In this document: positions 4,144 to 14,387 of the stretch, piece by piece
Layout of the letters: the number at the start of each line of letters is the position of its first letter
Numbering within the stretch: the stretch's first letter is position 1
Sequence record: OR594181
Strand: one strand, 5' to 3'
Source: Escherichia phage vB_EcoM_SHAK7704
DNA: 44,446 bases
Translations under genes and position numbers: made by a program
The notes under the pieces: generated by a model
Told to the model about the DNA's origin: nothing
What the model saw: the letters and a program-made list of their open reading frames with translations, nothing else
Databases searched by the model: none

Positions 4144-4216
4144 AGTCTGCTTCAGTAAGCCTGACGCTACAAAATTAGGTCTGTACATTCTCTCGCTAGA
4201 ACGCGGGTATAATTAA
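4007..4216 (+). CDS. o-spanin (Rz1-like outer-membrane lipoprotein)
   Basis: GTG 4007 with GGAGG 6 nt upstream (alternative ATG 4019); signal peptide with lipobox IISGC; proline-rich mature part; +1 frame over the i-spanin. Confidence 0.6.
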   Translation: MKRIMLATTLLIGSLIISGCQTALPENPKVKPLKPTLTAVYEVDDKVCFSKPDATKLGLYILSLERGYN

Positions 4217-4245
4217 TACATAGTTTTATGTATCAGTGTCTTACG

Positions 4246-4263
4246 ATTTACTGGACACTATAG
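4246..4263 (+). promoter_or_regulatory. Phage RNAP promoter ATTTACTGGACACTATAG
   Basis: Exact consensus 18-mer upstream of the tailspike genes. Confidence 0.7.
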
Positions 4264-4347
4264 AAGAGATAAGATAGTGCCGTTCTTTTGAGCGGCCTAT
4301 TACTAGCCAATCTTCATAGGGAGGATTGGGAAGTAATAGGAGAGTAT

Positions 4348-4683
4348 ATGGCTAAGTTAACTAAACCCAAGACAACTGGCTTACTACATAGAGATACTGT
4401 ACTAGCTACATTATTGGATAATTTACTATCTAAAAGGCGTGTTACATTTGAAGGTGTAGTTCCAAGTGAAGATACTAAAATTGAGATAGAAGTACCTGCA
4501 ACAGGAGATTTAGATTCTTCGTGGGCATCACTTGTATCATTAAGTACACCTACACTTTGTACAGCTTGGATTACTAAAGTGTCAGATACTAGATTAGAAG
4601 TACATGTGTTCCATACAGCACAAGTTGAAATAGACATAGATGTAGATGTTTACATTCTAGGTAAACACATTGTCAGTGCGTAA
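4348..4683 (+). CDS. Short tailspike-like protein (111 aa) in the second-tailspike position
   Basis: ATG 4348 with GGGAGG/AGGAG RBS; sits directly upstream of the endosialidase, where K1-5-type phages carry a second tailspike. Confidence 0.5.
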   Translation: MAKLTKPKTTGLLHRDTVLATLLDNLLSKRRVTFEGVVPSEDTKIEIEVPATGDLDSSWASLVSLSTPTLCTAWITKVSDTRLEVHVFHTAQVEIDIDVDVYILGKHIVSA

Positions 4684-7186: not shown

Positions 7187-7397
7187 GCAAGCGGCTGTAC
7201 GCCAGAACACAGAAGAACTTATTCAATCAGGACGTGACCATAAGCAGGCTTATGCCATTGCTAAGGATGTACAACGTCGTGCCGGATTTCCCCCATATGG
7301 GGGCCGCGCTGCGGTTGGCTTGGGAATTGGGCTAGGCTGGGCCGTCTTCGACGGGTGGCCTAGAGCTTGCCGAGGTCTGCTCTTAGTGGCTGCACAA

Positions 7398-7531
7398 GGA
7401 GAACGCCTAGGAAGCGCTAGGGCACGCCTTAGTATTGGACAAGGTGATTGCCTTAGTGCAACCGCTTAGGGCTTACACAGGCCGTTTTAGGGCCATTCCT
7501 GAGCGTTTGACAAGGTGGGCGTGGGTGGGCT
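7398..7531 (+). repeat. Direct repeat copy 1 (134 bp), putative right terminal repeat
   Basis: Identical base-for-base to 7532-7665 in direct tandem. Confidence 0.7.
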
Positions 7532-7665
7532 GGAGAACGCCTAGGAAGCGCTAGGGCACGCCTTAGTATTGGACAAGGTGATTGCCTTAGTGCAACCGCT
7601 TAGGGCTTACACAGGCCGTTTTAGGGCCATTCCTGAGCGTTTGACAAGGTGGGCGTGGGTGGGCT
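7532..7665 (+). repeat. Direct repeat copy 2 (134 bp), putative left terminal repeat
   Basis: Identical to 7398-7531; followed at 7666 by ATCTGTT. Confidence 0.7.
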
Positions 7666-7716
7666 ATCTGTTCGTTTCGTTCACTCCGCTTGCGCTCCGT
7701 TCACTCGCTCACGTGT

Positions 7717-7845
7717 ACCTTAGGTTATTCCTTGATGGATGGCTTAGGTTAGCCTTAGTGGGCTGCCTTAGTTAAAGCCTTAGTGCTTAGCTTAGTATCA
7801 ACTTAGTAGTGTACCTTAGTAAGTCTTAGTGTCTTCTCTTAGTGA
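7717..7845 (+). repeat. Array of about 10 short CTTAGT-type repeats next to the terminal repeat
   Basis: ccttagg, gcttagg, ccttagt, gcttagt, acttagt, tcttagt recur every 8-15 bp. Confidence 0.6.
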
Positions 7846-8027
7846 TTGCATAGCTAAAGCTATAAGATGCAATTAGGTCGCGGTCGGTAGACCGCTAAGA
7901 GTAGGTAATAGTAATAAGATGCAGTAGGAGGAACACCAGAAACCTAGCCAACCTAGCCTATCCTAGCTCTGTATCTATTGCTTTCCTTAGTCTCACATGT
8001 TAGACAACCTATGTTTATCTTAGTAGT

Positions 8028-8043
8028 TGTGACATGTATCACA
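8028..8043 (+). promoter_or_regulatory. CRP-like site TGTGA-N6-TCACA
   Basis: tgtgacatgtatcaca matches both CRP half-sites; centred about 72 bp upstream of the predicted early start site. Confidence 0.3.
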
Positions 8044-8072
8044 TAAATAATCTATCTTAGTGAAACTTAGTG

Positions 8073-8101
8073 TTGACATAGGCAATCAACTGGTATACAT
8101 T
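8073..8101 (+). promoter_or_regulatory. Host sigma70-type early promoter
   Basis: TTGACA at 8073-8078, 17-bp spacer, TACATT at 8096-8101; about 400 bp inside the left genome end. Confidence 0.5.
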
Positions 8102-8251
8102 AGCAATCACTGAGACGGACCTAGCAAGCTGTCTCAGGTTATAAGCAGGAGAATTGATGCGTAAGCCATAGCTAGTGGATGTAGTCGCATGAAGGCTTGA
8201 GTAAGGGGCCGCTTAATACCTTCTTCCTCTGGAGACAACGCTTATAACACT

Positions 8252-8264
8252 GCTCTTTAACAAT
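8252..8264 (+). promoter_or_regulatory. Conserved early intergenic 13-mer GCTCTTTAACAAT (copy 1), candidate RNase III site
   Basis: One of five near-identical copies, each 40-70 nt upstream of an early gene start and flanked by imperfect dyads. Confidence 0.4.
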
Positions 8265-8322
8265 CTGCTTAGTGTAACCTATGTATGCCGTGGTTAATTA
8301 CTTATTGAATGAAGGATTAACT

Positions 8323-8550
8323 ATGAAAGTACAAGTAAAAGCGTACAACATGCCAGTTGATGAGATTCAGCACTTCCTCGATAAAGGTTATGACTTATGT
8401 AAGATGCGCACACCAGATAACTATGACTACTCACCTAAATATCTGCATTATATTGATCTTAAGATGGGTAAGAAGTTAGTTATTACAGGTACTGCATATA
8501 ACCGCATTATCAAAGTTCTTAAAGAGGGTGCTAATCATGACATTAAATAA
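8323..8550 (+). CDS. Early hypothetical protein
   Basis: ATG 8323 with GAAGGA RBS (track ORF starts at 8281 without RBS). Confidence 0.5.
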   Translation: MKVQVKAYNMPVDEIQHFLDKGYDLCKMRTPDNYDYSPKYLHYIDLKMGKKLVITGTAYNRIIKVLKEGANHDIK

Positions 8551-8716
8551 CCGTGAACTGTCCGTTCTCTTCACTCTGTTGTGCTACATGATTCGTAACA
8601 ACGAATTACTTACAGATGATGAGTTAGCCTTGTATCACCGCTTTCTTAACGAAGGTTGGACCGATACGGTTAATCAATACCGTAACATGATAGATGAGTT
8701 GAGGGAGGGTAGATAA
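8537..8716 (+). CDS. Early hypothetical protein
   Basis: ATG 8537 after GAGGG RBS; stop overlaps the next start. Confidence 0.45.
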   Translation: MTLNNRELSVLFTLLCYMIRNNELLTDDELALYHRFLNEGWTDTVNQYRNMIDELREGR

Positions 8717-8940
8717 TGTATCAACATGAGGTATTCTTTGAATCATCTAGCGAAGCTATTCGCTTCCACGATGATATGCTACAAGCTGGCGTAGGTGTTG
8801 ATGTACATCACTTCCTACTAGATTACGACACTGAATATCACCGAGTTACCTTAGTATCTGAGTATGACAACCAAGTCATTACTGAGTATCTAGGTAGTGA
8901 AGATTATGATTACGATGAAGTAATCACGACAAATCTCTAA
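8716..8940 (+). CDS. Early hypothetical acidic protein
   Basis: 74 aa; TAATG stop-start overlap; Asp/Glu/Tyr-rich. Confidence 0.5.
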   Translation: MYQHEVFFESSSEAIRFHDDMLQAGVGVDVHHFLLDYDTEYHRVTLVSEYDNQVITEYLGSEDYDYDEVITTNL

Positions 8941-9010
8941 ATTAACTATTGACAACCACGGCATACAAGGTTACATTAAGCATCAAGACGGCGACGTCTT
9001 TAAACATCAC

Positions 9011-9023
9011 GCTCTTTAACAAT
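9011..9023 (+). promoter_or_regulatory. Conserved 13-mer GCTCTTTAACAAT (copy 2)
   Basis: Preceded by hairpin AAGACG-gcga-CGTCTT. Confidence 0.4.
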
Positions 9024-9168
9024 AGAGATTAGGCCGGGAGTATCGGTGTGAGGGACAAGGAGGCTTTCCCACAATTAAACTGGTGGCAAAAGGATTGCCC
9101 AGCTTTATAGCCCAGTTATGGATAGCAATAGCGTAAGGATGGCAGCACACCCGCGAGTCTAATCTCTA

Positions 9169-9181
9169 GCTCTTTAACAAT
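9169..9181 (+). promoter_or_regulatory. Conserved 13-mer GCTCTTTAACAAT (copy 3)
   Basis: Upstream of the 9225 ORF. Confidence 0.4.
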
Positions 9182-9224
9182 CGGGCTAGTGCCTTGGTAG
9201 GCTAACTACTTACTAAGGTGAACT

Positions 9225-9437
9225 ATGAACTACTGCGACATCGCTCACGAATTACGCATGGAACGTGAGAAACAAGAGAAGCGGATTATCAAGAAGATGG
9301 CTGTACTGCTTGCACACTATAAGGCAGACAAACAGCCAACACATGATGAGTTCGTGGACTTCTGTAACATGTATCTTAATGTGAGTAAGGCCACTGGTTA
9401 CAGATGGCTTAAAGCACTGAATGATGGAGAATTGTAG
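9225..9437 (+). CDS. Early small protein with possible HTH-like segment
   Basis: 70 aa; AAGGTG RBS; C-terminal SKATGYRWLKAL resembles excisionase/AlpA-type DNA-binding helices. Confidence 0.5.
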   Translation: MNYCDIAHELRMEREKQEKRIIKKMAVLLAHYKADKQPTHDEFVDFCNMYLNVSKATGYRWLKALNDGEL

Positions 9438-9480
9438 CAATAAGCCAGCTTAATAGCTGGCCTATCAAGGCACTAACCTA

Positions 9481-9493
9481 GCCCTTTAACAAT
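9481..9493 (+). promoter_or_regulatory. Conserved 13-mer GCCCTTTAACAAT (copy 4) inside a bulged dyad
   Basis: Flanked by cctatcaaggcac / gtgtcttgatagg imperfect inverted repeat; preceded by hairpin GCCAGCT-taat-AGCTGGC. Confidence 0.45.
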
Positions 9494-9539
9494 CTGGTTT
9501 TGTGTCTTGATAGGCTTACTAACAGAAAGGTAAATTATC

Positions 9540-9707
9540 ATGGAAACTTTAATCGTTACCACTACAATCAACGGCGTAAGTATCAGCATAACTAAGTATT
9601 CTTCCGAAGAGTATGAAGTGAATCACGGAATAGCTGCTATGGTGTATGACAACTTGGCAGATGCCGTGGAGCATTGGATACAGTCATGTAAGGCTGCAAT
9701 TAAGTAG
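9540..9707 (+). CDS. Early hypothetical protein (55 aa)
   Basis: Not in the ORF track; AAAGG RBS; METLIVTTTINGVSISITKY... Confidence 0.4.
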   Translation: METLIVTTTINGVSISITKYSSEEYEVNHGIAAMVYDNLADAVEHWIQSCKAAIK

Positions 9708-9752
9708 GAAAGAGAAGGCTGGCACTAGCCAGCCTATCAAGGCACAAGCCAC

Positions 9753-9765
9753 GCTCTTTAACAAT
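9753..9765 (+). promoter_or_regulatory. Conserved 13-mer GCTCTTTAACAAT (copy 5)
   Basis: Preceded by hairpin GGCTGGC-acta-GCCAGCC; upstream of ocr. Confidence 0.4.
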
Positions 9766-9861
9766 ATGGGTAGTCGCTTCTTAGTCTGGATAGGTTAAAC
9801 CTAGGAGATTCTCTTGAGTCTCCTATAATGTAACCTAACTAACTAAATGAGGATTAATAAC

Positions 9862-10218
9862 ATGGCTATGTCTAATATGACTTACTCTCAGGTTTACAAC
9901 ACCGCTCATGCTGCATTAGTTGAACGTATCTGGGATGATGCTATTGATTGTATCGATAACGCACATGATGCAATCCATGAGGTGGCGGGTAGTGCTGTAC
10001 CAATCTATTATGCTGACATCTTCTCGGTGATGGCCAGTGAAGGCATCGACCACTTCTTCGAGGATTCTGGCTTAATGCCAGACACTAAGGATGTGACGGT
10101 CGTACTACAAGCCCGTATTTATGAACAACTCACCATTGATTTATGGGAACGTGTTCAAGATATGATTGATGCGTACATCGATTCCGCTGAGGATTCAGAA
10201 GAAGAGGAGGAAGAATAA
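9862..10218 (+). CDS. ocr: Ocr-like DNA-mimic anti-restriction protein (T7 gene 0.3 homolog)
   Basis: MAMSNMTY...[15 protein letters not shown]...[13 protein letters not shown]...[15 protein letters not shown] with acidic C-terminus, closely matching T7 Ocr as recalled; start at ATG 9862. Confidence 0.85.
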
Positions 10219-10324
10219 AGATGGAAAGGCAATATAACTTTATCTTCTCAGACGGTGTAACCCTGAAATGTTCCTTACGATTTGCGCAGATTCGTGAGGA
10301 AGTACTAGGAACTACATACAAGCT

Positions 10325-10342
10325 ATTTAGCTGACACTATAA
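10325..10342 (+). promoter_or_regulatory. Variant phage promoter ATTTAGCTGACACTATAA (SP6-like upstream half)
   Basis: Matches the SP6 consensus ATTTAGGTGACACTATAG except G to C at one position and A in place of the +1 G. Confidence 0.4.
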
Positions 10343-10410
10343 GAGAAGACTTAACAAGGCGTTGCTACGGTAGCGCCTGATTAAACTTTCACTTACTAGG
10401 AGTTAAGATT

Positions 10411-10638
10411 ATGGATTTAGATAGCATCATTATGGCATTTGCTCTTATTGGCTTAAGCTGGTGCTCCTATCACCTTTACCGTGAGTTCTTATTTGATAAA
10501 GCTAAACGCAAACTAAGAAAGGAAGGCGGTAATTACCTTTGTATAAGAGGTGGCTTAGTCGAATACATTGCACCTAACGGCATGGAGTGCGCCATTAACA
10601 AAGATGCATTTATAGAGACGTGGCATTACATCAAGTAG
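10411..10638 (+). CDS. Early small membrane protein
   Basis: 75 aa; N-terminal transmembrane segment IIMAFALIGLSWCSY; GGAG RBS. Confidence 0.55.
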   Translation: MDLDSIIMAFALIGLSWCSYHLYREFLFDKAKRKLRKEGGNYLCIRGGLVEYIAPNGMECAINKDAFIETWHYIK

Positions 10639-10702
10639 CTAGCCTATAGCCTACCTGTGTGGGCTATGTGATATTTACTTACCACTATATAAGGTGACTA
10701 TT

Positions 10703-11587
10703 ATGACTACTGAAAACACCCTCCTGTCTGTCCGCGAAGCTGCAACCGCTGAGATTAAGCAGCATTTGGATAATATCGGCACTTCTTACATCAAAGTAGG
10801 TGCTTGTCTGAATGAGTTACGCGGAGACTTCGAAGGTCAAAAAGAGTTCTTAGCCTATGTTGAAGCAGAGTTCGGCATCAAGAAAGCACAATGCTACAAG
10901 CTGATGAGTGTAGCCCGTGTCTTTGAAGGTGACGAACGATTCAAAGGCGTGGCTATGCGTGTAATGCTGGCGCTTGTTCCTTTCGCTGATGAGAGTATCA
11001 TCATGGAGAAGGCCGCAGAACTTGCCGCAGAGGGCAAGCTGGACACTAACGCCGTAAACGCCCTAATTGAGTCTAAGAAAGAGCCAAAGGCCGAGACGGT
11101 ACAATCTAAGGCTGAGCCAGTAAAACCGCAGGAGAACGCGGCTGAGGCCGCAGAATCACAGGAAACGCAAGCGCCGCAGGTAGTGCCGCCAATGAGTGAG
11201 CCGGACACCGACGAATCCGCACCGTGGGAGGGCGAAAGCAAGCCGGAAGCACCTAAGGCTGCGCCTCTGGACAACACTGCTAACACAGAGAACGCCGCCA
11301 TGGCTGGCCTGTTGGCACAAATTAAGGCACTGACTGAGCAATTACAGGCGGCTAACGACCGCATCGCAGCTCTAACCAGTGCACGTGAAAGCAAGAAGGC
11401 AGCCGCGCCTATGCTCCCACAATTCAAATCCAAATGTTTCTATGCTCGCTTGGGTTTGAGTGCTGAGGAGGCAGAGAAGAAAACAGCAGTGAACAAGGCA
11501 CGCCGCGAACTGGTTAAACTGGGATACGGTGAAGGCCATGAGGCATGGCCCTTAATCTCTGAGGCAGTAGAAGAATTAACTAAGTAA
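10703..11587 (+). CDS. Early hypothetical protein with Pro/Glu/Ala/Lys-rich linker
   Basis: ATG 10703 after AAGG; globular N-terminal ~120 aa, low-complexity middle, conserved-looking C-terminal ~60 aa; directly upstream of the RNAP gene. Confidence 0.6.
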   Translation: MTTENTLLSVREAATAEIKQHLDNIGTSYIKVGACLNELRGDFEGQKEFLAYVEAEFGIKKAQCYKLMSVARVFEGDERFKGVAMRVMLALVPFADESIIMEKAAELAAEGKLDTNAVNALIESKKEPKAETVQSKAEPVKPQENAAEAAESQETQAPQVVPPMSEPDTDESAPWEGESKPEAPKAAPLDNTANTENAAMAGLLAQIKALTEQLQAANDRIAALTSARESKKAAAPMLPQFKSKCFYARLGLSAEEAEKKTAVNKARRELVKLGYGEGHEAWPLISEAVEELTK

Positions 11588-11650
11588 CCTTATCGGTGGC
11601 ATCTTCTTAGGTGTCACCTATTAAGGTTTCTTTCACTAGGAGTAAACAAG

Positions 11651-14278
11651 ATGCAAGACCTACACGCTATTCAACTTCAACTTGAAGAAGAAATGTTTAA
11701 CGGCGGTATCCGTCGCTTTGAAGCGGACCAACAACGCCAGATTGCATCCGGTAATGAATCAGACACGGCATGGAATCGCCGTTTATTGTCCGAGTTAATC
11801 GCGCCAATGGCTGAAGGTATTCAGGCATACAAGGAAGAGTATGAAGGTAAAAGAGGCCGTGCACCGCGTGCATTAGCTTTCATTAACTGCGTAGAAAACG
11901 AAGTGGCAGCATATATCACGATGAAAATCGTTATGGATATGCTGAATACAGACGTTACCTTACAAGCAATCGCTATGAATGTAGCGGACCGCATCGAAGA
12001 CCAAGTACGTTTTAGCAAGCTGGAAGGTCACGCAGCTAAGTACTTTGAGAAAGTGAAGAAGTCGCTTAAGGCTAGCAAGACTAAATCTTATCGTCATGCG
12101 CACAACGTAGCGGTAGTAGCTGAGAAATCTGTTGCTGACCGTGACGCGGATTTCTCCCGTTGGGAGGCATGGCCTAAAGATACCTTGCTACAAATCGGTA
12201 TAACCTTGCTAGAAATACTGGAAAATAGTGTATTCTTCAATGGTCAGCCTGTCTTTCTTCGCACCTTGCGCACTAATGGTGGCAAGCATGGCGTTTACTA
12301 CTTACAGACCAGTGAACACGTAGGGGAATGGATTACAGCATTTAAAGAACATGTAGCGCAACTTAGCCCGGCTTATGCACCTTGCGTTATACCTCCGCGT
12401 CCGTGGGTTTCTCCTTTTAATGGCGGTTTTCACACTGAGAAGGTAGCAAGTCGTGTGCGTCTTGTTAAAGGCAGCCGTGAACACGTCCGCAAGCTGACCA
12501 AAAAGCAAATGCCAGCGGTTTACAAGGCTGTTAACGCTTTGCAGGCGACTAAATGGCAGGTTAACAAGGAAGTTTTACAGGTTGTTGAGGACGTAATACG
12601 GCTTGATTTAGGCTATGGCGTACCTTCCTTCAAACCACTCATCGACCGCGAGAACAAGCCAGCTAATCCGGTGCCGTTAGAGTTCCAGCACCTGCGAGGC
12701 CGTGAACTGAAAGAAATGTTAACACCGGAACAATGGCAAGCCTTCATCAACTGGAAAGGTGAATGCACCAAGCTGTATACCGCTGAGACTAAGCGCGGCA
12801 GCAAATCGGCGGCGACCGTCCGCATGGTAGGGCAGGCCCGTAAATACAGCCGATTTGACGCAATATACTTCGTGTATGCTCTGGACAGCCGCAGCCGCGT
12901 CTACGCGCAATCTAGCACGCTCTCTCCACAATCAAACGACTTAGGCAAGGCATTGCTCCGTTTTACCGAAGGGCAGCGTCTTGATAGCGCTGAGGCGCTT
13001 AAGTGGTTTTTGGTGAACGGGGCTAATAACTGGGGTTGGGATAAGAAAACTTTTGACGTGCGCACCGCTAACGTGCTGGATAGTGAATTTCAAGACATGT
13101 GCCGCGACATTGCAGCGGATCCGCTGACCTTCACTCAATGGGTAAATGCCGACTCCCCTTACGGCTTCCTTGCATGGTGCTTTGAATATGCGCGTTATCT
13201 GGATGCACTGGATGAAGGCACGCAAGACCAATTCATGACGCACCTCCCAGTCCATCAAGATGGTAGTTGTTCTGGTATCCAGCACTACAGTGCTATGCTA
13301 CGCGATGCAGTAGGTGCGAAAGCGGTAAACCTTAAGCCCTCTGACTCACCTCAAGATATTTATGGTGCCGTTGCGCAGGTAGTAATTCAGAAGAATTATG
13401 CATACATGAATGCAGAGGATGCGGAAACCTTCACTTCTGGCAGCGTGACTTTAACAGGTGCAGAACTTCGTAGCATGGCTAGTGCGTGGGATATGATAGG
13501 AATCACTCGCGGCCTGACCAAAAAGCCTGTAATGACACTACCTTATGGCAGCACACGTCTAACCTGCCGTGAATCAGTGATTGATTATATCGTTGATTTG
13601 GAAGAAAAAGAGGCCCAACGGGCTATTGCGGAAGGGCGTACCGCCAATCCTGTACATCCTTTTGATAATGACCGCAAAGACAGCCTGACACCTAGCGCAG
13701 CTTATAACTATATGACAGCTTTAATCTGGCCTTCTATTTCGGAAGTGGTTAAAGCTCCTATAGTGGCAATGAAAATGATTCGTCAGCTTGCACGTTTCGC
13801 AGCTAAAAGAAACGAAGGCTTAGAATATCCCTTACCAACTGGCTTCATCTTGCAACAAAAGATAATGGCTACCGATATGCTCCGCGTATCCACTTGCTTG
13901 ATGGGTGAAATCAAGATGAGTCTCCAGATTGAAACAGATGTAGTTGATGAAACGGCAATGATGGGTGCGGCTGCCCCTAACTTCGTCCATGGTCACGATG
14001 CTAGCCACCTGATTCTGACTGTATGTGACCTAGTGGATAAAGGTATTACATCCATTGCAGTCATCCATGATTCTTTCGGTACTCATGCAGGACGTACCGC
14101 AGACCTGCGGGATAGCTTAAGGGAAGAAATGGTTAAGATGTATCAAAACCATAATGCCCTGCAAAACCTGCTAGATGTGCACGAAGAGCGTTGGTTAGTA
14201 GACACCGGAATCCAAGTACCAGAGCAAGGAGAGTTTGACCTTAACGAAATCTTAGTTTCAGACTATTGTTTCGCATAA
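11651..14278 (+). CDS. Single-subunit DNA-dependent RNA polymerase (T7 gene 1-like)
   Basis: 875 aa; C-terminus ...DYCFA like T7 RNAP ...FAFA; preceded by early genes. Confidence 0.95.
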
Positions 14279-14286
14279 TATTAATA

Positions 14287-14318
14287 GGCCATTCCTTAGG
14301 GAGTGGCCTTTTTCTTTA
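14287..14318 (+). terminator. Intrinsic terminator after the RNAP gene
   Basis: GGCCATTCC-ttag-GGAGTGGCC stem followed by TTTTTCTTT. Confidence 0.65.
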
Positions 14319-14369: not shown

Positions 14370-14387
14370 ATTTACCGGACACTATAG
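14370..14387 (+). promoter_or_regulatory. Phage RNAP promoter ATTTACCGGACACTATAG
   Basis: Consensus with one substitution (C at position 7). Confidence 0.65.

Follow-up and report, generated by a model that had tools for sequence, protein, structure and literature searches.

What is the function of a near-invariant 13-nucleotide sequence that recurs five times between the early genes of a lytic phage? The question is raised by Escherichia phage vB_EcoM_SHAK7704, a K1E-like phage whose 44,446-bp record OR594181 was analysed over its whole length (hereafter, the window). An earlier note on this DNA had likened the arrangement to the RNase III processing sites of the T7 early mRNA, while allowing for a protein-binding or translational role on the grounds that the conservation is tighter than structure alone needs.

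Identity of the repeated 13-mer

A search of the whole window for GCTCTTTAACAAT returned four exact copies and a fifth, at 9481, with one mismatch, all on the + strand and within 8252-9765, as had been described, and no further match at one mismatch or fewer; none of 100 dinucleotide shuffles contained five matches (shuffle mean 0.11). On comparison, GCTCTTTAACAAT agreed with the boxA of the E. coli rrnB leader at 13 of 13 positions, and judged by this identity the repeat is the host rrn boxA, which is known biology rather than a new signal. In the rRNA operons of E. coli, boxA is the RNA signal that loads the Nus anti-termination factors onto RNA polymerase; NusB and ribosomal protein S10 (NusE) bind to it. 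The phage copies, having the same RNA sequence as this characterised ligand, are expected to bind NusB-S10. The gamma-proteobacterial boxA consensus is GYTCTTTAANA (PMC5725501), and four of the five copies match both this consensus and the rrn form TGCTCTTTAACAA. Copy 4 (GCCCTTTAACAAT), which carries GCCC, fails the consensus at position 3 and, given this departure, may bind poorly; the same variant occurs in phage UTI89UKE2. Compensation of this GCCC for the CGGGCTA after copy 3 was considered and rejected, since in UTI89UKE2 GCCC occurs alongside CTGGCTA.

In the predicted minimum free energy and centroid folds of every context the 13-mer stays free of pairing apart from, at most, marginal pairing at one of its ends, and information content drops to 0.6 bit or less immediately 5' of it, giving a sharp edge of conservation at a point where upstream and downstream modules have recombined freely. 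The proposal that the 13-mer is itself an RNase III site is therefore not supported, given its predicted single-stranded state everywhere and its identity to rrnB boxA, whereas the fallback role in protein binding gains support from that same identity to a protein-binding RNA element; conservation tighter than structure needs likewise implies protein binding. A -10 element and an IHF site were also considered for the 13-mer and rejected on inspection because the spacing and consensus do not fit.

Organization of the early region

All five copies lie on the coding strand, 3' of predicted sigma-70-like promoters and 5' of the first phage-polymerase promoter-like site (such sites were first found at 10327 and 14372). 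The placement of the 13-mers 40-70 nt upstream of gene starts, claimed in the earlier note, applies to three of the five sites, with distances to the ATG of 71 nt at site 1 (8323), 56 nt at site 3 (9225) and 59 nt at site 4 (9540); it does not extend to site 5, which lies 109 nt from the ocr start, or to site 2, which has no + strand gene downstream and adjoins a 145-nt stretch lacking an ORF. This insert, directly flanked by copies 2 and 3 as direct repeats, was found in eight near-identical phage records only, and searches of E. coli genomes, IMG/VR, Rfam and tRNA models returned no match to it. The first cassette contains three ORFs. A Pfam scan of the eight early ORFs recognised only Ocr and detected no N-like protein, divergent small antiterminators and small arginine-rich proteins being easily missed by such a scan. 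An Rfam E-value scan of 7300-12000 gave chance matches only, ARAGORN found no tRNA or tmRNA, and boxA sites are annotated in none of the inspected GenBank records.

Perfect hairpins, said to precede the 13-mer often, were indeed present before sites 4 and 5 (7-8 bp); site 2 is preceded by a 6-bp hairpin, and the predicted folds place none at sites 1 and 3. The hairpins before sites 4 and 5 were considered as intrinsic terminators and rejected, as they have no U-tract. The sole terminator-like prediction near them is on the non-transcribed strand. Imperfect dyad symmetry had been assigned to every site; it holds locally at site 4 (9460-9481 / 9494-9515) and weakly at site 5, and not at the others, the dyads being mostly the arms of long-range inverted repeats around whole gene cassettes.

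Table 1. Coordinates of features in the early region of vB_EcoM_SHAK7704 (positions in the window; promoters, stems and hairpins are predictions).
Feature	Position	Strand	Remarks
Sigma-70-like early promoter, TTGACA-17-TACATT	8073..8101	+	10/12 consensus; pattern match only; ~145 nt upstream of boxA 1
boxA copy 1 (GCTCTTTAACAAT)	8252..8264	+	exact; identical to rrnB leader boxA
Stem A 5' arm	8266..8295	+	inverted repeat; brackets first cassette (8323-8940)
Internal sigma-70-like promoter, TTGACA-17-TACATT	8949-8977	+	pattern match; overlaps stem A 3' arm
Stem A 3' arm	8954..8982	+	inverted repeat
6-bp hairpin, GCGA loop	8985..9000	+	precedes boxA 2, after the internal promoter; placed like the rrn boxB hairpin
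boxA copy 2	9011..9023	+	exact; ~+28 from predicted start of internal promoter
145-nt insert without ORF	9024..9168	+	~13-bp closing stem 9024-9036 / 9156-9168
boxA copy 3	9169..9181	+	exact
Stem B 5' arm	9184..9208	+	inverted repeat; brackets ORF 9225-9437
Perfect 7-bp hairpin	9444..9461	+	after ORF 9225-9437; without following U-tract
Stem B 3' arm	9454..9478	+	inverted repeat
boxA copy 4, variant GCCCTTTAACAAT	9481..9493	+	one mismatch
Stem C 5' arm	9500..9521	+	inverted repeat; brackets ORF 9540-9707
Perfect 8-bp hairpin	9716..9735	+	after ORF 9540-9707
Stem C 3' arm	9726..9747	+	inverted repeat
boxA copy 5	9753..9765	+	exact; last copy, upstream of ocr
Composite hairpin	9791..9837	+	7-bp lower stem, 4x5 internal loop, 10-bp upper stem
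ocr (T7 gene 0.3 homologue)	9862..10218	+	PF08684, E = 4e-42; first gene after the boxA array

Long-range stems around the early cassettes

A long-range stem of 20-30 bp begins with its 5' arm 0-6 nt downstream of each non-terminal boxA; its 3' arm stops shortly before the next boxA or promoter, and the stem thus brackets a gene cassette. Stem A (about 30 bp, -48.1 kcal/mol) is 99% paired with 2 compensatory pairs, and stems B/C (20 bp) are 97.7% paired with 4 compensatory pairs, a score reached by 0 of 500 shuffles; this covariation represents few independent events among closely related genomes. Over 18 loci, the 35 nt after every non-last boxA (32 cases) pair at -28 to -54 kcal/mol, and the pairing partner ends 1-29 nt before the next boxA in 29 of these cases, while control windows (n = 659) average -21.8 kcal/mol. 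Scored in the same way, rrnB gives -51.9 kcal/mol, and the phage stems thus match the rrnB 16S processing stem (arms at 421-476 / 2101-2156) in strength. Bracketing stems also occur in Pseudomonas phage Njord, one of the 18 loci, with unrelated arm sequences. The duplex is stronger on the + strand in 22 of the 32 cases, a modest strand asymmetry. Where cassettes adjoin, the 3' arm of stem B can instead pair locally with 9494-9515 across boxA 4, and such alternative pairing counts against the mechanism proposed below. The 5' arm of stem A was also inspected as a leftward promoter and rejected for its poor -35 match.

The RNase III analogy, misplaced for the 13-mer, is better suited to its flanks. 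RNase III sites comprise dsRNA of about 20 bp or more, often broken by an internal loop; stems A (about 29 bp) and B/C (about 20 bp) reach this length, and these bracketing stems would probably be cleaved by the enzyme. The composite hairpin after the last boxA (z = -4.5) has the architecture of T7 R0.3 and of the annotated R0.3 of phiYeO3-12, and relatives carry compensatory variants in it (AGGAGA/TCTCCT vs AGGGTA/TACCCT); we regard it as a candidate equivalent of the T7 R0.3 RNase III site.

The arrangement resembles the nut-like E. coli rrn leader (boxB-boxA-boxC), which has the same 13-nt boxA, a hairpin upstream as at phage sites 2, 4 and 5, a duplex with its 5' arm just past boxA and its 3' arm just past the cargo, and a second boxA after the first processed unit, in the 16S-23S spacer. 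The two differ in that the phage units carry translated mRNA of 0.2-0.7 kb, or the 145-nt ORF-less RNA, in place of rRNA, the phage stems are 20-30 bp as opposed to about 50, and up to five units are packed into 1.5 kb. Furthermore, boxC (TGTGTGGG; motif UGUGUGGG) is not conserved as such in the phage, where a search after boxA for a motif of this type gave no match, only GUGU/GUGC at the start of the 5' arm. The phage does have what would be its functional counterpart, a long-range stem arm immediately 3' of boxA.

boxA in other phages

At the level of sequence, boxA is conserved across the Autographiviridae. All nine further genomes that were sampled (phiYeO3-12, K1F, Klebsiella Pharr, Z1 and KPN7, Pseudomonas UNO-SLW3 and Njord, Kenya-K11 and T7) have at least one + strand copy in their host-transcribed early leader, and the + orientation is strict across roughly 60 sites. 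SP6, K1-5, K1E and IMG/VR relatives have 2-3 copies each, so that copy number ranges from 2 to the 5 of vB_EcoM_SHAK7704 among close relatives. In all combinations, boxA forms the exact junction of at least three upstream and at least four downstream module types. T7 has one copy, the same 12-mer at 813-824, in host-transcribed early RNA between promoter A3 and R0.3/gene 0.3; it lies about 20 nt before R0.3, in the order boxA, R0.3, gene 0.3, and shares with our phage the same boxA plus an AATCTGG extension, as well as a composite hairpin after the last boxA. In phiYeO3-12 the annotated R0.3 stem-loop (956-1009) begins 28 nt past the end of boxA (915-927). In T7 and the other five single-boxA genomes sampled there are local hairpins only and the long-range partner is weak (-21 to -29 kcal/mol), in contrast to the five copies of vB_EcoM_SHAK7704, four of which head stem-bracketed cassettes. 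A passage of PMC3709561 that cites Savalia 2010 describes the T7 boxA as a functional anti-termination element whose mutation has a genetic phenotype. Searches of the open-access literature did not find the multi-copy arrangement described in such phages, and the boxA-headed cassette architecture is apparently a variant for which we could not find a description. The SP6/K1-5 genome paper reportedly may mention boxA sequences.

Proposed mechanism

Taking the sequence identity, the position and the bracketing stems together, we infer NusB/S10 binding, anti-termination, delivery of the stem arms and cleavage by RNase III. We consider it likely that each unit loads Nus factors onto the host RNA polymerase in the manner of rrn, coupled to probable processing by RNase III. 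In the nascent early RNA made by this polymerase, the boxA copies would bind the NusB-NusE(S10) heterodimer, which would nucleate an rrn-type complex (NusA, NusG, SuhB) on the polymerase, leaving it fast and termination-resistant with the boxA RNA still tethered; homology to T7 is what suggests that boxA may promote read-through or faster elongation here. One boxA would head each transcription and processing unit, namely after the leader promoter, after the internal promoter and after each cassette. Tethering would hold the 5' arm close to the polymerase for as long as the 3' arm has yet to be transcribed; once the duplex has formed, RNase III would cut it and free a cassette mRNA whose ends are paired. 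The cut would disconnect the used boxA, so that the next copy would then reload the complex, while the last leads, as in T7, into a local hairpin of the R0.3 type and then ocr. The idea that a boxA-tethered rrn complex delivers boxC to the sequence with which it pairs comes from a published model (PMC8632103). Two points count against the mechanism: rRNA is reported to be intrinsically Rho-resistant, with folding as the main role of the Nus factors there (PMC5725501), and ribosomes translating a cassette could keep the long-range arms apart.

More tentatively, and with a probability that we place well short of even, the early region of SP6/K1-5/K1E-type phages and of Njord may be a chain of mini-rRNA-operon mimics, in which Nus factors and SuhB serve as co-transcriptional RNA chaperone and anti-terminator to deliver the arms, and RNase III excises end-paired cassettes. 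Each mimic would consist of boxA, a stem arm, cargo and the matching arm, with Njord being independent in sequence. The 5' arm would be carried with the polymerase across 0.2-0.7 kb of translated RNA to the 3' arm, and RNase III would yield cassette mRNAs with paired ends as well as a single non-coding RNA of 145 nt. An array of boxA on abundant early RNA could also have the incidental effect of titrating NusB, S10 and SuhB from the host rrn operons.

Two other systems resemble parts of this proposal. In the lambda nutL / N leader, boxA is likewise followed by an RNase III structure and then a Shine-Dalgarno sequence and gene, with Nus factors tethering the RNA to polymerase. The lambda boxA, CGCTCTTA, deviates from the rrn consensus and requires protein N on boxB, whereas the phage sequence is of the N-independent rrn type; the phage hairpins, moreover, do not resemble boxB and are found 5' of boxA rather than 3' as in lambdoid nut sites. 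The suhB 5'UTR, a case of Nus-factor autoregulation, likewise carries a consensus boxA ahead of an ORF in an mRNA, but there a single gene is repressed and Rho-terminated, unlike an early-operon array with bracketing stems.

Alternative explanations

The suhB case shows that boxA can act negatively, as a copy up to 100 nt upstream of the Shine-Dalgarno represses translation and promotes Rho termination (PMC5725501), and the sign of the boxA effect on the downstream phage genes is therefore not certain. A loop of boxA, Nus factors and polymerase might keep the next gene from being translated until its tether is cut by RNase III, thereby setting the timing or dosage of early proteins. The spacing here (56-109 nt), the candidate RNase III structure between boxA and Shine-Dalgarno in every unit and the documented analogy to the nutL / N leader (PMC5725501) fit such a role; yet a lytic phage needs rapid early expression and the T7 genetic evidence is couched in terms of anti-termination. 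We give this possibility little credence as the principal function, while noting that it is compatible with Nus loading and processing, of which it could be a side-effect relieved by cleavage. The opposite influence on translation is also conceivable, with the copies as A/U-rich enhancers (standby sites) that bind S1 and boost the small downstream ORFs. S1 binds boxA RNA specifically, rrnB boxA has been used experimentally as an 'A/U-rich enhancer' (PMC2176067) and four of the five copies are 56-109 nt upstream of start codons. In those constructs, however, boxA abuts the Shine-Dalgarno, whereas here a 20-30 nt arm or an RNase III-like hairpin intervenes; copy 2 precedes no ORF, R0.3 cleavage in T7-like genomes would strip boxA from the 0.3 mRNA, and A/U-richness would not call for anything like the observed conservation of the exact 13-mer, which together make an enhancer role unlikely in our judgement.

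It is very improbable that the 13-mer is itself a part of RNase III processing signals like the T7 early R sites. Its early intergenic location, the nearby dyads and hairpins and the closeness of the T7 boxA to R0.3 invite this reading, but the motif is predicted to be unpaired at every site, stays invariant while its flanks and pairing partners change, unlike determinants in dsRNA, and is identical to a known single-stranded protein-binding element; the R0.3 stem-loop annotated in phiYeO3-12 excludes boxA altogether. We find it harder still to credit that the repeats are mainly cassette boundaries at the DNA level, serving module exchange in co-infection with no RNA function of their own. The module junctions, the variable copy number and the 145-nt insert between direct boxA repeats are what one would predict from it, but it leaves the identity to the host rrn boxA and the strict orientation unexplained, single copies occur in T7-like phages without cassette shuffling, and recombination at a functionally constrained sequence is a simpler account of the mosaicism.

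Implications

Beyond the identity of the motif, the interest of this locus lies in the layout of its boxA-headed cassettes. Rrn-style Nus loading coupled to RNase III processing would make the early region a compact natural system for the 'delivery' model, with cassettes of 200-700 nt as compared to the 1.5 kb of 16S rRNA. The layout offers an explanation for the multiple boxA copies in several phages of the T7 supergroup, and boxA with its flanking arms would mark the limits of the modules in which relatives exchange early ORFan genes. It also indicates where foreign cassettes could enter such phages without breaking early transcription, and predicts that host nusB, nusE, suhB and rnc genotypes would shape the early expression of K1-specific therapeutic phages.

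Results

Four exact copies of the motif GCTCTTTAACAAT stand at 8252, 9011, 9169 and 9753; a fifth, GCCCTTTAACAAT at 9481, has one mismatch, and all five are on the + strand. No further match at ≤1 mismatch was found on either strand of the window, and in 100 dinucleotide shuffles the five-match level was never attained (shuffle mean 0.11), which bears out the five near-invariant copies of the earlier note. Other properties ascribed to them there hold for part of the set. Copies 1, 3, 4 and 5 lie 71, 56, 59 and 109 nt from likely start codons of early genes, but copy 2 precedes no + strand ORF; a perfect hairpin, said to be frequent upstream, is present at copies 4 and 5 (7-8 bp; 9444-9461 and 9716-9735), copy 2 having a 6-bp hairpin with a GCGA loop (8985-9000); and dyad symmetry, proposed around every copy, locally surrounds just copy 4 and, in weak form, copy 5.

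At all 13 positions the motif agrees with boxA in the rrnB leader of E. coli K-12, where it stands ~40 nt 3' of promoter P2 in the context ...GCGGCACT-GCTCTTTAACAAT-TTATCAG...; the copy in the rrnB 16S-23S spacer reads GCTCTTTAAAAAT. BoxA RNA is bound by the NusB-NusE(S10) heterodimer, which nucleates a Nus/SuhB complex on RNA polymerase (PMC5725501; PMC8632103), and the gamma-proteobacterial consensus GYTCTTTAANA (PMC5725501) is matched by four of the five copies, copy 4 deviating at position 3. Judged by sequence, orientation and context, the copies belong to the rrn-type boxA class, and the motif is accounted for by known biology.

The early region is 98.6% identical to that of Escherichia phage K1E (KY435490), its close kin being other Vectrevirus genomes (Autographiviridae, Molineuxvirinae). 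The window is a circular permutation with the terminal repeat near 7400-7665; because a ~135 bp direct duplication at 7399-7665 (ggagaacgcctaggaagcgctaggg...gtgggct twice in tandem) falls where a K1E-like terminal repeat and genome ends are expected, it looks like a circularly permuted assembly with both repeat copies. Dense CTTAG/CCTTAGT-type short repeats (ccttaggt, gcttaggt, gccttagt, ccttagt and others) occupy 7700-7860, downstream of the terminal repeat and ahead of the early promoters. All genes of the early region run rightwards, from several small ORFs through ocr, the T7 gene 0.3 homologue, to the single-subunit RNA polymerase. The five boxA copies lie 3' of the predicted sigma-70-like promoters and 5' of the first phage-polymerase promoter-like sites, and this position places them on RNA made by the host polymerase. 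Directly 3' of the phage polymerase gene, a 10-bp GC-rich hairpin followed by TTTTCTTT (together at 14286-14309) is likely the early terminator, and the first strong match to a phage-polymerase promoter, TTACCGGACACTATAG (14372-14387), lies downstream of that hairpin.

Coordinates of predicted features of the early region
Feature	Position	Strand	Details
Sigma-70-like promoters	8073 and 8949	+	TTGACA-17-TACATT; pattern match
Stem A	5' arm 8266-8295, 3' arm 8954-8982		~29 bp with one bulge; 3' arm overlaps internal promoter
Insert stem	5' arm 9024-9036, 3' arm 9156-9168		encloses 145-nt ORF-less insert
Stem B	5' arm 9184-9208, 3' arm 9454-9478		around ORF 9225-9437
Stem C	5' arm 9500-9521, 3' arm 9726-9747		around ORF 9540-9707
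Composite hairpin	9791-9837	+	7-bp lower stem, 4x5 internal loop, 10-bp upper stem; z = -4.5
ocr	9862-10218	+	Pfam PF08684, E = 4e-42
First phage-polymerase promoter-like sites	10327 (weak), 14372		
Single-subunit phage RNA polymerase gene	11651-14278	+	

An inverted-repeat search placed one arm of a long-range inverted repeat 0-6 nt downstream of each non-terminal boxA and its partner after the next ORF or ORFs, just upstream of the next boxA or promoter; the arms of stems A, B, C and the insert stem are all intergenic. When the 35 nt 3' of each boxA in 18 loci were searched for their best duplex within the next 900 nt, all 32 non-terminal copies gave -28 to -54 kcal/mol, against a mean of -21.8 in 659 control windows (5th percentile -29.3, minimum -39.2; Mann-Whitney p = 1e-21), and terminal copies ranged from -19.5 to -29.6 kcal/mol. 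For 29 of the 32, the best partner stopped 1-29 nt short of the next boxA; the exceptions were locus L018 (106 nt short) and two sites that paired best with the corresponding 3' arm of the next cassette. For the rrnB leader boxA the same procedure recovered the 16S processing stem (-51.9 kcal/mol; arms 421-476 / 2101-2156), and single-boxA T7-like genomes yielded control-like values of -21 to -29 kcal/mol. The bracketing rule is kept with unrelated arm sequences in KPN7, locus L015, contig L131 (a boxA pair bracketed by a stem of different arm sequence) and Pseudomonas phage Njord, where one duplex of 32 bp reaches -54.3 kcal/mol. The internal promoter TTGACA-17-TACATT (8949-8977) coincides with the stem A 3' arm (8954-8982), so that read-through RNA from upstream would carry the full duplex and RNA begun at the promoter would not. 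Promoter-like sequence also covers a 3' arm in Njord (~1592-1625 of its locus).

Both stem classes covary. Across 14 distinct sequences, 99.0% of cells in the 30 pairs of stem A are paired, with two pairs changed on both sides and a covariation score of 0.070 vs 0.036 in shuffles (0/500 reach the observed value); slid registers are 24-38% paired. Stems B and C (20 pairs; 11 distinct end-pairs from five different genes) are 97.7% paired, with four pairs changed on both sides (11 cells) and a score of 0.254 vs 0.181 shuffled, again with 0/500 reaching it and slid registers at ≤0.058. Mismatches are mostly G-U in the + sense and the + strand duplex is the stronger in 22 of 32 cases, which lends modest support to stems acting at the RNA level.

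Copy 2 adjoins a 145-nt ORF-less stretch (9024-9168) with a ~13-bp closing stem, boxA 2 and boxA 3 standing directly on either side. Against K1E AM084415 the 145 nt count, together with one boxA, as an insertion of 158 bp; only 8 phage records contain the stretch at ≥99% identity, and E. coli genomes, IMG/VR and Rfam gave no match to it. A minus-strand 44-aa ORF annotated in it by one record is unlikely because all inspected genes of the genome run rightwards, and the insert is possibly a small non-coding RNA cargo of an rrn-like cassette.

BoxA 5 has no long-range partner downstream. It is followed by the composite hairpin, a Shine-Dalgarno sequence and ocr, and the hairpin has the architecture of R0.3, the RNase III site upstream of T7 gene 0.3, and of the annotated R0.3 of phiYeO3-12; relatives carry compensatory upper-stem variants (AGGAGA/TCTCCT vs AGGGTA/TACCCT). 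A matching 12-mer stands in T7 at 813-824, downstream of host promoter A3 (750), ahead of gene 0.3 (925) and ~20 nt upstream of the R0.3 hairpin, and in phiYeO3-12 boxA starts 41 nt 5' of the annotated stem-loop. The last unit is thus collinear with T7 (boxA, hairpin, gene 0.3). On the strength of an open-access summary of Savalia et al. (PMC3709561), the T7 boxA was already recognised and is genetically active.

Each of the nine genomes scanned has a perfect GCTCTTTAACAA on the coding strand of the leader 5' of the phage polymerase gene, once each in T7, phiYeO3-12, K1F, Klebsiella phages Pharr and Z1 and Pseudomonas UNO-SLW3, twice each in KPN7 and Kenya-K11 and three times in Njord. SP6 has two copies and one degenerate, K1-5 three, K1E three and one with an extra T, and IMG/VR relatives two to three; the highest count seen, five, is that of the window genome and UTI89UKE2. 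In the original K1E record (AM084415, 2237-2250) the boxA 5' of ocr reads GCTCTTTTAACAAT, its extra T being a sequencing error in a homopolymer or else a true variant, which should make the site weaker. An exact IMG/VR scan for GCTCTTTAACAATNTG returned at least 120 contigs; among those listed, 105 of 120 lack a T7-type polymerase in the fetched stretch and none has 16S rRNA, so that rrn-type boxA is in wide use among phages. Examples of such contigs are L038 (2973-3223), L131 and L120, where repeated TTGACA-17-TACAAT promoters at 4150-4545 are each followed by GCTCTTTAA(C/A)AAT at ~+25. The sites are unannotated in every GenBank record inspected.

Discussion

The 13-mers had been read as RNase III-type sites, with a protein-binding or translational role as the fallback. 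For the motif itself the RNase III reading is rejected, because it is unpaired in every predicted fold and its flanks swap freely. Over 58 distinct sites, information content 5' of the motif is ≤0.6 bit at each position and the conserved 3' extension is short (T13, then T-G-G at +15 to +17), the high values at positions 1-12 being fixed by the search and high by construction. Interchangeable modules meet exactly at the motif, in all combinations: upstream either a promoter with a small hairpin or a hairpin with a stem arm, downstream at least four types. An invariant unpaired core with variable flanks points to a single-stranded protein-binding element rather than a double-stranded RNase III determinant and, with the identity to boxA, a NusB-NusE(S10) ligand, favours the protein-binding fallback. 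The flanking stems themselves are still probable targets of RNase III, an enzyme that accepts duplexes of 20-30 bp as substrates.

Enhancement of translation through S1 binding is documented for rrnB boxA beside a Shine-Dalgarno sequence (PMC2176067), but it accords poorly with the spacing seen here, leaves copy 2 unexplained and is at odds with the T7 layout; Nus-mediated translational repression is possible as a side-effect. Between window positions 8240-9800 and 19 compared loci, the mosaic joint lies at boxA, and near-identical phages differ in how many small early ORFan cassettes they have. A pure recombination linker would account for this mosaicism, which suggests cassette exchange via recombination at boxA and the arms, but would leave the identity to host boxA and the strand bias unexplained.

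The closest known systems to these boxA-headed cassettes are the rrn leader with its 16S stem and the T7 order boxA, R0.3, gene 0.3, from which the window differs in multiplicity (five units in 1.5 kb) and in long-range stems around translated cassettes. The open-access literature searched, outside which key subscription papers lie, holds no description of a multi-copy, stem-bracketed cassette architecture; relative to that literature the architecture is new, the boxA identity being already known.

In the mechanism we propose, each boxA would bind NusB-S10 and assemble an rrn-type complex on the host polymerase, giving processive, Rho-resistant and faster transcription through the leader and successive small ORFs as far as the phage polymerase gene; we infer this binding and anti-termination at the window copies from the identity to a characterised ligand and from T7 genetics. 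By its tether, boxA would hold the 5' arm beside it at the RNA exit for as long as the 3' arm has yet to be synthesised, as in the 'delivery' model published for boxC and the 16S stem (PMC8632103). An RNase III cut would then release the cassette mRNA with paired ends, and loss of the tether may also lift Nus-loop inhibition of translation, a relief suggested at suhB and in the N leader of lambda (PMC5725501). The same cut would detach the used boxA, and this would account for the fresh boxA at the head of every unit.
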